Positions 21,944-31,490 of a DNA stretch of 64,000 nucleotides are shown piece by piece. Origin of the DNA: Thiotrichales bacterium (lineage in GTDB: Bacteria; Pseudomonadota; Gammaproteobacteria; UWMA-0217); assembly GCA_050329935.1 (NCBI GenBank), contig JBHJOI010000032.1, positions 61,350 through 125,349 of the forward strand. Direction: 5' to 3'. Positions within the stretch are counted from its first letter, which is position 1, and the number at the start of each line of letters is the position of its first letter. The notes under the pieces were generated by a model. That model was not told where the DNA came from, ran no database searches, and saw only the letters and a program-made list of their open reading frames with translations. The position numbers and the translations under genes are program-made.

Positions 21944-22480
21944 ATGTCTGACTTGAATACCGTTGCCAGACCCTACGCCCGGGCTATTTTTGAAACCGCA
22001 CGCGATAGCGGGACGCTCGAGTCATGGTCAGAGAATCTACAAACCTTGGCCGCGTTCGCTCAAGAACCCACGCTGCTGGCCCTTCTTCATCGCCCCGACT
22101 TAACGCGGGACGCGGCGGCGACCCTGTTGATCAAGAGCTGCGGCGATCAGATCGACGACTCGGCCCAAAAACTGGTTAGGGTGCTTGCCGATAATGGTCG
22201 GCTCGCCGTGCTACCGGAGATATCGCAGCTCTACGAGAGCTTACGCGCCGACGCGGAAGGTATTGTCGAAGCAGAGATCATTGCCGCGATGCCAGTTGAT
22301 GCTAAACAACAATCGGCTATCGTTAAGGCCCTTGCGAAGCGCCTGGGGCGCGAGGTCAAAGTATCGACCCGGGTCGACCCTACCCTGATTGGCGGCGCGA
22401 TTATCCGCGCCGGCGATATGGTGATCGACGGTTCAATCAAAGGCCGCCTGGATAAACTGACCAGCGTAATGAATCGCTAA
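21944..22480 (+). CDS. atpH: F0F1 ATP synthase subunit delta
   Basis: 178 aa; OSCP family; position in the operon. Confidence 0.9.
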
Positions 22481-28249: not shown

Positions 28250-30082
28250 ATGTGTGGAATAGTTGGCGGTGTCGCCCAAAGGGATGTCTATCCGATACTG
28301 CTCGAAGGGCTGCGGCGACTTGAGTATCGCGGCTACGATTCGTCGGGGCTCGCGGTTGTGCCACAGAGCGGTACGCTCACGCGTTATCGCCGACTGGGTA
28401 AGGTCGCCGAACTCGAGGCGGCGCTGAAGGCCGATCCGCTGCCCGGGGGACTCGGCATTGCTCATACTCGATGGGCAACCCACGGCGTGCCATCGGAGCG
28501 CAATGCACACCCGCATATCTGCGATCGCACAATCGCCGTGGTCCATAACGGCATCATCGAAAACCATGAGTTTCTGCGTGAGGTTCAGCGAGATCGCGGT
28601 TTCCGTTTCACATCGGAGACCGATACCGAGGTCGTTGCACATCAGGTCATGCACTACGTACGCCAAACCGGCGACCTGTTGAGCGCAGTGCAACTCGCGG
28701 TCAAGGACTTTCGAGGCGCCTATGCATTGGGCGTGGTTTCGCAGGAACATCCCGACACGCTGATTGCCGCGCGGGAAGGCAGTCCACTGGTGATTGGTCT
28801 CGGTATCGGCGAGAACTTTATCGCCTCGGACGTCCAGGCATTGCTGCCCGTCACGCATCGCTTCATTTACCTGGAAAATGGCGATATCGCGCGCATCACT
28901 CGACACGCGGTCGAGGTGTTCGACCGCGACATGCAGCCCGTTCGCCGTGAAGTCAAAACCAGTACCTTGAATGCTGGTGCGACCGATCGTGCGGGTTACA
29001 AGCATTTCATGCTGAAGGAGATCCATGAGCAGCCCGAGGCGATCCGCGCGACCGCCGAAGGCCGGATATCTGGCGACGATGTGATGGAGCAGGTCTTCGG
29101 CGTCAAGAGCAACGAGTTGTTCGATCGGGTCAAGAATGTCCAGATTGTTGCCTGCGGTACCAGCTACCATGCCGGTTTAGTTGGCAAATATTGGATGGAG
29201 GCCCTCGCCGAGGTTCCCTGTCAAGTCGAAGTCGCCAGCGAGTTTCGATATCGTAAGACCTTGGTGCCCGCCGACACTCTGTTTGTCACGATTTCGCAAT
29301 CGGGGGAGACGGCTGACACCTTGGCTGCATTGATGCAGGCGCGCCAGCGCGGCTACCTCGGTACGCTCACCATCTGCAACGTGCCGGAAAGTTCCTTGGT
29401 TCGAGAATCGGATCTCAGTCTGATGACGCTTGCGGGACCGGAAATCGGCGTTGCGTCGACGAAGGCTTTCACTACGCAGCTCGTTGCGCTGTTGATCATG
29501 GTGCTCGCGATTGCCAAGCGAAAAGGTGTCGCACGCGAGACGATCGCGGACTCGGTAGCAGCGTTACAACAACTGCCGCGCTTTGTCGAAGCCGCGCTTG
29601 AAAGCGATGCCGTTATCGAGCGCTTGTGCGAACAATTCGTAGACAAGCAGCACGCGCTGTTCCTGGGGCGTGGAGTCGAGTTTCCGATCGCGATGGAAGG
29701 CGCCCTCAAGCTCAAGGAGATTTCATATATTCACGCCGAAGCTTATCCGGCAGGGGAACTTAAGCATGGTCCGCTCGCACTCGTCGATGAGAACATGCCG
29801 GTCGTGACGGTCGCACCGAACAACGAGCTGTTGGAAAAGTTGCGTTCCAATCTTGAGGAGGTTCGAGCGCGTGGCGGTCGTCTCTATGTATTCGCGCCGG
29901 CGCAATCGGGATTCGTGGACAGTGAAGGCGTAACTGTTGTACTGACGCCGCACGTGCCCAATATCATTGCGCCCATCGTAAACGTGGTGTTTTTGCAGCT
30001 TCTTGCGTACCACACCGCCGTGCTTAAGGGTACCGACGTCGATCAGCCACGCAACCTGGCAAAAAGCGTCACCGTAGAATAA
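28250..30082 (+). CDS. glmS: glutamine--fructose-6-phosphate aminotransferase
   Basis: MCGIVG... Ntn amidotransferase plus two SIS domains; 610 aa. Confidence 0.95.
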
Positions 30083-30285
30083 GCACCCACCTGCGCCTGC
30101 GGGTAAATGCCGCGATTGGCGGCTTGCCTGCAGGCAACGCTTCGTTCGTTCCCAATCGAGACCTCGTTCGTCGCAAACGCGTCACTGCCCCGGTTTAGAG
30201 CGCTATTCGCGTATCCTTTCGAACGAGTAGGTATAGGCGTCGAATTTTTTGGCGCGTCGCGATACCGAGGGAATGAGTCGACCCG

Positions 30286-30645
30286 CTAGCGGGTCGAGCT
30301 CTTGTGCTCGAGGTATTGCACAATCCGAGTGATGCCTTGGGGCGTTTTGACAAGCTCTCGGGGTATAGCCTCGAGCCGTGGCTCAAGGTGATTGAACCAG
30401 TGTCGCGCGCTGCTGAGATCACCGTCAAAAACGCAGTCCAGCGCCCGATTCATGCGGATCAATAGAAGTCGGCAGGCGGTGTCGGTAATGGCGCCGCTTG
30501 CTGATTCCGCGCATCGTGAAGTGGATTGCGACGCCTGCAAGAGTACGATCAGTTCCATCGAGGGAATGCCGATACAGCAGGCTGCTCGAAACGAAGCCAC
30601 TGATAAAAGGGCATCGGGGTCGAGGTCAACGGTCATTGCTTCCAT
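30286..30645 (-). CDS. hypothetical protein (119 aa, soluble; no family recognised)
   Basis: GC3-biased ORF, the only plausible reading frame in the 0.85-kb glmS-distal spacer. Its stop TAG is the centre of a 20-bp perfect palindrome. Weak SD. Confidence 0.35.
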   Translation of the reverse strand: MEAMTVDLDPDALLSVASFRAACCIGIPSMELIVLLQASQSTSRCAESASGAITDTACRLLLIRMNRALDCVFDGDLSSARHWFNHLEPRLEAIPRELVKTPQGITRIVQYLEHKSSTR

Positions 30646-30929
30646 GACTAGTCCGATAAAAGCGATAGGGTATATCGGATTTTAGGTGATCGTGGCGCGC
30701 TCGCGCTGCGAGCGACGGCGCCTTTCAGGCGCAACCAAAAGCAATAAGTTTGTCGGAGTGCTCGGCAGTGCCATCGAGATAAGGTACCTGACGGTTCGCG
30801 CGCTGGCTGCCAAGCGGGTTGGCAGCCGACCTTTTGTTTACGCGTCCGGCAACTGGAAAGAACAGGCGCTGCCTCCGGCGCCGAAAGTTCCCGTGGCGCG
30901 GAGGTGTGAACAGCAGACGGATCGGAGGT

Positions 30930-31490
30930 TTAGGTTCGGCTGAGAGATGCTTCTACCTGCGCCGCGACACTCGGTCCGCGCAGTTGTCTGATCAACTCGA
31001 GCGTAAAATCTATCGCCGTTCCCGGGCCACGAGACGTAATAACGTTTCCGTCGATCTCAACGGCCGCGTGACTCAAGGTGGTCGAAGCCAGGCCAAGAGG
31101 CTCCAATACGCCCGGATAAGCGGTGGCCGTGCGGTCTTTGAGAACGCCAGCGGCCGCCAACGCCTTGGGCGCCGCGCAGATGGCGGCGGTGAACCGCCCC
31201 GACGCGCTAAATCGCTGCAGCAAGTCGATAATACGCGGATCATCGCGCAAATGATCCGCGCCGGGCAGTCCTCCAGGCAGCGCGATCATGTCGAAATCCT
31301 GGTTCAGGACAAGGTCCAGTGTCGCATCCGGTACCAGAACGGTGCCGCGCGCACCTCTAACGGACCCGTCGTCGAGCAATGACGCGGTGACCACATCAAC
31401 GCCCGCGCGCCGAAGCAAGTCGATCATCGTCACCGCTTCGAGTTCCTCGAATCCGCTTGCAAGCGGTATCAGCACCCTGGCCATGAACAA
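30930..31490 (-). CDS. DJ-1/PfpI (ThiJ/YajL-like) family protein
   Basis: ...IALPGG..., class I glutamine amidotransferase-like fold with the conserved Cys in AICAAP. Confidence 0.85.
   Translation of the reverse strand: MFMARVLIPLASGFEELEAVTMIDLLRRAGVDVVTASLLDDGSVRGARGTVLVPDATLDLVLNQDFDMIALPGGLPGADHLRDDPRIIDLLQRFSASGRFTAAICAAPKALAAAGVLKDRTATAYPGVLEPLGLASTTLSHAAVEIDGNVITSRGPGTAIDFTLELIRQLRGPSVAAQVEASLSRT

Follow-up and report, generated by a model that had tools for sequence, protein, structure and literature searches.

Does the 0.85-kb gap between glmS and a DJ-1/PfpI-family gene of a Thiotrichales bacterium hold a gene, a regulatory element or a structured RNA? The gap lies in a 64,000-nucleotide stretch of a stromatolite metagenome contig (JBHJOI010000032.1), and this whole stretch is referred to as the window. 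The glmS gene is located on the plus strand and its stop codon ends at 30082, the DJ-1/PfpI-family gene is located on the minus strand and ends at 30930, and the spacer between these convergent genes comprises 847 bp. An initial annotation of this DNA had found no recognizable gene and no placeable protein family in the spacer. We consider it likely that the spacer holds one real protein-coding gene, which encodes a solo antitoxin homologue, together with hairpins that mark the 3' ends of two convergent transcripts. The sole sizeable coding-like frame is a minus-strand open reading frame (ORF) of 119 codons, the coordinates and sequence of which had been given correctly before:

30286–30645, minus strand: ORF of 119 amino acids (aa), a stand-alone (toxin-less) homologue of the Xre/MbcA/ParS/NatR antitoxins, recognized by PF09722, a NatR match, HMMER relatives, AlphaFold2 (AF2)/Foldseek, a syntenic orthologue and codon-position identity

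The GC contents at the codon positions 1, 2, and 3 of the ORF were 0.59, 0.48, and 0.63. The previously described bias at the third position is real, though it is weaker than in the neighboring genes.

The ORF product belongs to the Xre/MbcA/ParS/NatR antitoxins

Here, we found that the ORF product is a very divergent member of an antitoxin family that is normally paired with RES-domain toxins degrading nicotinamide adenine dinucleotide (NAD). The Pfam model PF09722 (Xre/MbcA/ParS toxin-binding domain, DUF2384) matched residues 69–113 with 24.4 bits (E 2.9e-5) and the match covered profile positions 2–46 of 51. A weak match to the NCBIfam model Xre_ParS_antitoxin extended over residues 27–113. 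The only match among the PDB sequences was NatR (8qnl_A, E 3.6e-5, query residues 10–113), and the 8QNL entry represents the NatR–NatT complex of a RES-toxin system of Pseudomonas aeruginosa (PMC11535050). When 1.84 billion cluster representatives were scanned exhaustively with HMMER, 81 relatives were obtained at E ≤ 1e-3, nearly all of which were 110–140 aa long and aligned end to end with the ORF. In an alignment of 36 of these relatives, four residues (R64, W83, P95, G104) were invariant and the ORF retains all of them. PF09722 matched 35 of the 36 aligned proteins, and the N-terminal Xre-like helix-turn-helix (HTH) domain PF20432 was found in 28. For the ORF and for its three closest relatives (P0002, P0003, and P0004), no PF20432 match was obtained, even at E ≤ 10. 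The ORF–NatR alignment spans the HTH region, and an S-T-S-R stretch of the ORF aligns near the T-V-S-R of the family. Homologues of the ORF on plasmids are annotated as Xre-like antitoxins adjoining an RES NAD+ phosphorylase. A word-indexed homologue search returned the ORF alone, and a scan of genome contigs yielded no relative; none of the species representatives there is close to the source lineage (best DJ-1 identity 66%).

The initial annotation had proposed structure prediction of the product as a check. The AF2 model, which was calculated from the alignment of the relatives, reached a predicted local distance difference test (pLDDT) score of 88.9 and a predicted template modeling (TM) score of 0.78. 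It is all-helical and includes one long helix at residues 29–43. When this model was compared with the PDB by Foldseek, the four best matches were NatR chains (TM 0.72–0.79, probability 1.00), followed by Pseudomonas putida Xre (6gw6_B), MbcA (6fkg_C), and Vibrio VPA0769 (8gug_C) with probabilities of 0.96–0.99; lower matches were noise. The sequence matches and the AF2/Foldseek result therefore establish that the ORF belongs by family and fold to the Xre/MbcA/ParS/NatR antitoxins (PF09722 + PF20432; COG5642), and the view that no family can be assigned had to be given up.

NatR was thus the best match of the ORF both by PDB sequence and by structure (8QNL/8QNQ; PMC11535050). The two proteins are similar in size (119 aa for the ORF, 129 aa for the PDB chain) and share an equal helical architecture including the long C-terminal helix. 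However, their identity in the structural alignments amounted to 22–24%, and the Xre-like HTH escapes detection by Pfam in the ORF. The antitoxins of the Xre-RES system of P. putida (6GW6, 9R35), of MbcA-MbcT of Mycobacterium tuberculosis (6FKG), and of VPA0769-VPA0770 of Vibrio parahaemolyticus (8GUG) share PF09722 and the fold with the ORF, but their structural similarity to it is lower (TM 0.41–0.57).

No toxin gene accompanies the ORF

Canonical antitoxins of the Xre/NatR type are encoded directly upstream of a RES-domain toxin, which degrades NAD+ or is adenosine diphosphate (ADP)-ribosylating, and they neutralize this toxin. The canonical relatives P0005 (L087) and P0007 (L089) show this arrangement, with the RES gene located downstream and overlapping the antitoxin gene by 14 nt. 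In the window, the stop codon of the ORF lies 203 bp from that of glmS. We translated these 203 bp in the three minus-strand frames and did not find a Pfam match, and no start-codon ORF continues in frame past the ORF stop. When two RES toxins of canonical relatives were used as tblastn queries, the best E value anywhere in the 64-kb window was 0.5. A candidate RES remnant at the expected strand and place (30279–30118) was rejected, since its E value of 40 was treated as noise. The defense models of PADLOC gave no match either. Most of the interval between the two stop codons is taken up by the following element:

30138–30277, no strand: non-coding stretch between two hairpins, which holds the CTCGTTCG/CGAACGAG stem and no detectable toxin remnant (no Pfam match in three minus-strand frames, RES tblastn noise, codon scores of about 0, absent from the related genome L083)

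Because no toxin gene follows the ORF, we classify it as a solo ("orphan") antitoxin homologue; the locus does not constitute a two-gene RES-Xre toxin-antitoxin module. In this respect it differs from natR, which is followed by natT, and from Xre, MbcA, and VPA0769, which are small antitoxins encoded upstream of their own RES toxins in two-gene operons. Solo toxins and antitoxins are abundant and account for >50% of genes belonging to the largest families, and regulation in trans or exaptation, for instance into regulators of transcription, has been proposed for them (Makarova, Wolf, & Koonin, 2009; PMC2701414). Since solo antitoxins are common and have been discussed in that study, the category into which the 119-aa ORF fits is already known.

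The reading frame of the ORF continues open for about 133 codons past its UAG (about 29887–30285, minus strand), running antisense into the 3' end of glmS. The codon score of the first 67 of these codons is of the non-coding type, and they gave no Pfam match. The UAG in a hairpin loop and the open frame beyond it are a curiosity, and nothing suggests read-through of the ORF stop.

The protein is retained in a related genome and belongs to a toxin-less group

The three closest relatives of the ORF (about 34–41% identity) are all toxin-less. The closest one, P0002, has 119 aa and 40–42% identity and is encoded in the metagenome-assembled genome GCA_050330555.1 (L083), in which it occupies the identical position between DJ-1 and glmS. 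Between the window and L083, the amino-acid identity was 92% for glmS and ctpA, 77% for glmU, and 71% for DJ-1 and envC. Conservation and synteny of the spacer had been named as a check by the initial annotation, and the two levels gave different answers: the ORF is found at the same place, but the DNA homology ends at 30114 and restarts at 30991, and the spacer between these positions cannot be aligned. Despite this, the ORF protein was detected in L083 at equal length (tblastn E 8e-27), and therefore it is the protein that is conserved and not the DNA. In L083 the ORF stop is separated from the glmS stop by 63 bp and the 140-bp stretch 30138–30277 is absent. This stretch is therefore specific to the window genome and does not represent an ancestral toxin remnant.

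For the aligned codons of the ORF and P0002, the identity was highest at position 2 (0.63), lower at position 1 (0.54), and lowest at position 3 (0.32), where substitutions are saturated. The same order was seen in 6 of 6 pairwise comparisons within the four-member group formed by the ORF and its three closest relatives. This order is the mark of selection acting on a protein.

The other two relatives reside in different genomic neighborhoods, and both are toxin-less. P0003 (L085) lies between a CbiX-like gene and the mnh operon, and P0004 (L086, L090) lies between a Crp-like gene and aroQ-accBC-prmA; the L090 copy was the single further P0004-type copy added by a metagenome scan. These near-identical P0004-type copies differ in the gap before aroQ, which measures 590 bp in L086 (1826–2414) and 230 bp in L090 (455–683), and this difference implies a putative insertion or deletion of about 360 bp in L086. 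A 136-aa relative with 35% identity, P0006 in the region L088 61–1302, has no downstream RES gene on its short contig, and a 214-aa ORF without a Pfam match precedes it on the same strand. P0006 could be another solo case or one with an unconventional partner.

The toxin-less group comprises four clusters at 50% identity (the ORF, P0002, P0003, and P0004), and we compared its features with those of 32 canonical relatives. A vicinal Cys-Cys in helix 1 (C23 and C24 of the ORF product; motif RA[AG]CC[LI]G[LI]) was present in 4/4 members of the group and in 0/32 canonical relatives. Conversely, the YL(D/E) motif is followed three residues on by an Arg in 20/32 canonical relatives and in 0/4 toxin-less members; the ORF, which carries a Ser at this place, lacks this common feature of the NatR family. 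In the toxin-less group the recognition-helix region is variable and prone to indels. The C-terminal helix of NatR plugs the active site of the toxin and enters its substrate cavity (PMC11535050). The loss of the C-terminal Arg would be compatible with the loss of a canonical toxin partner. Taken together, the group is small, fast-evolving, and consistently solo. Compared with solo antitoxins in general (PMC2701414), the ORF differs in that its solo state is common to a distinct group marked by the Cys-Cys, a degenerate recognition helix, and the loss of the Arg. In a limited literature search, we found no description of a solo group with its own sequence signature in the COG5642/DUF2384 family.

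The envC-ctpA-DJ-1 arrangement is shared by 80 gammaproteobacterial loci (L003–L082), in which the DJ-1 identity ranges from 52% to 66%. None of these loci has glmS within 5 kb downstream, and in none does an ORF homologue adjoin DJ-1. The glmS–DJ-1 junction is common only to the window genome and L083. This adjacency (window 28250–31490) is lineage-specific, and the spacer thus lies at a synteny breakpoint. One rival view takes the spacer for what a mobile element left behind, either a scar or a remnant of its cargo, after it had carried the antitoxin gene to an attTn7-like hot spot downstream of glmS. The ORF locus does lie immediately downstream of glmS, the homology to L083 stops 32 nt past the glmS stop, the codon usage of the ORF looks foreign, the glmS–DJ-1 adjacency is missing from all 80 other gammaproteobacterial loci, and the ORF copies of the window and of L083 resemble each other no more than they resemble copies from different genomic contexts. 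However, the 850 bp contain no transposase, no integrase, and no other ORF, and no other family match was obtained in the spacer. We found no terminal inverted or direct repeats bracketing the ORF, although Tn7 end motifs were not specifically searched. The spacer has no GC anomaly, no match was obtained in a plasmid DNA collection or in viral contigs, and glmS is followed directly by an intact hairpin. The ORF has its 5' motif and its position in common with L083, a hint at descent from a shared ancestor, and the other group members lie between housekeeping genes that are unrelated to glmS. A mobile-element origin at this hot spot is possible but unsupported, and we rate it as highly improbable.

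Hairpins and folding potential of the spacer

Two perfect palindromes of 20 bp and 14 bp had been reported for the spacer, and both were found as described. The following hairpins were found in the spacer:

30278–30297, minus strand: 20-bp perfect palindrome TCGACCCGCTAGCGGGTCGA with an 8-bp stem and a 4-nt loop, unique (fold −18.3 kcal/mol, z −3.2)
30095–30135, plus strand: 41-nt nested hairpin starting 12 nt past the glmS stop (z −3.4)
30084–30105, minus strand (30105→30084): terminator-like hairpin followed by CTTATTCTAC, from a consensus scan only
30804–30840, plus strand: terminator-like hairpin with a 10-bp stem followed by TTTTGTTT, from the scan (z −1.1)
30865–30882, minus strand: weak terminator-like hairpin 48 nt past the DJ-1 stop with TGTTCTTTCC behind it, from the scan, no different in stability from shuffled sequences

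The UAG stop of the ORF (CTA, 30286–30288) is the center of the 20-bp palindrome and is held in the loop and the closing pair. The palindrome is unusual for an 850-bp spacer, because the expectation for perfect palindromes of at least 20 bp is 0.13 per 64 kb; of 100 first-order Markov simulations, 12 contained one. By position, it is a candidate for a 3'-end hairpin or a terminator of the ORF transcript, and it lacks a U-tract. A REP-like repeated element was rejected, as the 20-mer is unique in the window even when 3 mismatches are allowed. The 14-bp palindrome TTGCCTGCAGGCAA (30124–30137) corresponds to the 3' arm of the 41-nt hairpin plus flanking bases. By itself this 14-mer is unremarkable, since the window contains 13 palindromes of at least 14 bp, about twice the 6.4 expected from 100 first-order Markov simulations. 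Several of them hold cores resembling restriction sites (CACGTG, GCATGC, CGATCG, GTCGAC). A further 14-bp palindrome, TCGACCCGGGTCGA (22364–22377), is located within the gene for the delta subunit of ATP synthase (OSCP family, 21944–22480, plus strand), and its 7-nt arms are those of the 20-bp palindrome. The pattern TCGACCC-N0-12-GGGTCGA occurred 2 times in the window and 0 times in 100 shuffles, a comparison for which the pattern was picked after the data had been seen; the arms shared by TCGACCCGGGTCGA and TCGACCCGCTAGCGGGTCGA are probably a coincidence.

The 41-nt hairpin has the sequence GCCUGCGGGUAA..GCCGC-GAUUG-GCGGC-UUGCCUGCAGGC and is followed by a poor U-tract (AACGCUUCGUUCGUU). Its region (30083–30155) folds with −35.1 kcal/mol (z −3.4), and 0 of 200 shuffles were as stable. 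A nested hairpin likewise follows glmS in L083. These data suggest that the hairpin is the probable transcription terminator of glmS. A putative terminator role of both this hairpin and the stop-codon hairpin is supported by their gene-end position and by the comparable glmS hairpin in L083. It had been noted before that glmS lacks a canonical T-tract terminator, and our scan agrees with this statement: no hairpin with a T-tract was detected on the plus strand between glmS and 30804. The ORF transcript, for its part, may end at the hairpin of its stop codon or further on, at the terminator-like site by glmS (30105→30084), which is a possible distal end just ahead of glmS. The hairpin at 30804–30840 is no more stable than shuffled sequences. 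It is oriented for plus-strand transcripts and has no plus-strand gene upstream, and it could keep glmS read-through or antisense transcription from reaching DJ-1.

Two possibilities had been offered by the initial annotation, namely that the spacer holds a regulator together with its operators or that it holds a structured RNA. The first suggestion was right in kind as far as the protein is concerned, because the ORF product is a member of a family whose proteins are small antitoxins/repressors of the HTH type. The palindromes are not placed as its operators would be, since one forms part of a hairpin 12 nt past the glmS stop and the other lies on the ORF stop codon. Their most likely explanation is a mundane one, namely that they form hairpins where the convergent transcripts of glmS and of the ORF have their 3' ends. 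Thus, the observation made initially was confirmed and its interpretation is partly supported.

As to the second suggestion, the functional element of the spacer might be a structured non-coding RNA, either an antisense or 3'-untranslated-region-derived small RNA between glmS and the ORF or an RNA upstream of the ORF that ends at 30804–30840, and the ORF would then be incidental. The plus strand of 30075–30300 indeed folds better than its shuffles (z −3.1, 2 of 200), the T-tract hairpin at 30804–30840 has no plus-strand gene upstream, and the inverted segments CTCGTTCG and CGAACGAG, which had been placed at about 30158 and 30213, exist and pair in the minimum-energy fold; their positions are a few bases off (30163–30170 and 30220–30227). 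However, much of the folding signal of 30075–30300 is probably due to the two gene-end hairpins, each of which is highly stable by itself, and both the hairpin at 30804 and the region upstream of the ORF fold no better than shuffles. A lenient covariance scan against Rfam 15 returned sub-threshold noise only (radC 17 bits vs. 40, sR30 15.6 vs. 38, Yar_3 15.1 vs. 50), so that no family came near its threshold. No spacer DNA aligns with the closest related genome, in which the 63-bp gap lacks 30138–30277, and alignable homologues for a covariation analysis were not found. The ORF, moreover, has strong independent support at the protein level, and we regard a structured RNA as the functional element of this spacer as very unlikely.

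A candidate promoter/operator upstream of the ORF

30652–30684, minus strand: candidate promoter/operator, a TAAAAT −10-like box (30684→30679) overlapping an inverted repeat, found by repeat search and by motif sharing with L083

The inverted repeat TCCGATA-N14-TATCGGA (30652–30679) is located 7 nt upstream of the ATG of the ORF. The motifs CTAAAATCC(G/A)AT ... ATCGGA ... GTCATGGAAG are common to the window and L083, whereas the rest of the spacer cannot be aligned. Judged from these motifs, the repeat and the TAAAAT box together are the best candidate for a promoter/operator of the ORF, partly conserved in L083. The ORF may be transcribed from this promoter of its own, and the overlap of the conserved box with the inverted repeat would possibly allow autoregulation. 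The candidate repeat is analogous to the operator of the P. putida Xre-RES system, which is an imperfect inverted repeat located within the promoter (PMC12204516).

Weighing the interpretation

Several observations weigh against our interpretation of the spacer as a genuine solo antitoxin gene flanked by transcript ends. At the protein level, the PF09722 score of 24.4 is 0.1 bit under the gathering cut-off of 24.5, and the NCBIfam Xre_ParS_antitoxin score of 16.9 falls far short of the cut-off of 90 set for that model. Conservation and AF2 confidence are both lowest in the recognition-helix region (mean pLDDT of 59 for residues 41–50). The codon usage of the ORF is only weakly host-like, with positive but low log-odds of 0.08 compared with 0.24–0.40 for six neighboring genes. 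Its Shine-Dalgarno sequence is weak, and a sigma-70 consensus scan of 29900–31100 called no promoter. The terminator scan called neither the 30095–30135 nor the 30278–30297 hairpin, and neither is followed by at least 5 T in 8 bases; we infer the terminator role of both from position only. The search for a RES gene covered the 64-kb window, and a partner toxin may be encoded elsewhere in the genome. Moreover, autoregulation by the solo protein seems doubtful, because the known systems require a toxin-containing hexamer for DNA binding. In P. aeruginosa, the NatR–NatT 4:2 complex represses its own promoter, and only this hexameric complex binds DNA (PMC11535050). For P. putida, repression is reportedly exerted neither by Xre alone, as monomers, nor by the 2:2 Xre-RES complex (PMC12204516), and the solo ORF protein may therefore not regulate in such a manner. 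Finally, the ORF is only about 40% identical to its syntenic counterpart P0002 while its neighbors reach 71–92%, which fits relaxed constraint or decay.

This last observation leads to the view that the ORF is the decaying relic of a former Xre-RES module, from which the toxin was deleted and in which the antitoxin gene drifts without function. The missing toxin and the fast divergence are what one would expect of such a relic, and so are the low codon-usage score, the weak expression signals, and the loss of the Xre-HTH Pfam signature and of the common C-terminal Arg. On the other hand, an intact ORF of 119 codons has been kept in place in L083 although the flanking intergenic DNA can no longer be aligned, and the codon-position order was the coding-type one in all six pairwise comparisons. 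The four family-invariant residues and the RA[AG]CC[LI]G[LI] motif have been kept across four lineages and three genomic contexts, and the AF2 fold is confident. On balance, we consider a functionless relic of this kind unlikely, and we prefer the interpretation as a real gene for a solo antitoxin homologue.

Functional implications

If the ORF is a functional gene, its product would most likely act by protein binding via the DUF2384-type C-terminal domain and not as a classical HTH repressor. We can only tentatively name a role. The product may buffer a RES-type toxin that is encoded elsewhere or arrives on a mobile element. Somewhat less probable, and rather doubtful, is exaptation to another partner or role, and among the functional fates a slowly decaying relic appears more doubtful again. 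A more far-reaching version, which we regard as quite unlikely and advance as speculation, is that the ORF represents an undescribed toxin-independent branch of the NatR/Xre fold. This branch would have been domesticated in chromosomal housekeeping contexts, with the old toxin-binding domain binding a new partner, and its members would be neither antitoxins nor classical HTH repressors; the hallmark Cys-Cys would then be a functional site, for instance a thiol/redox-sensitive or metal-binding one. If this were true, the conserved placement beside a DJ-1/PfpI-family gene in two genomes would be meaningful.

The locus is ordinary with one mild twist, which is its membership in a toxin-less, Cys-Cys-bearing group. 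The unannotated 0.85-kb gap is resolved as containing a gene that is just missed by standard domain thresholds, and we advise annotation as a solo Xre/MbcA/ParS-family antitoxin-like protein and not as a toxin-antitoxin system. For the family, which is otherwise known only as partners of RES NADases, the finding adds a rare, small, and consistently toxin-less group. This group provides a modest test case for the fate of an antitoxin after toxin loss, be it trans-immunity, exaptation, or decay.

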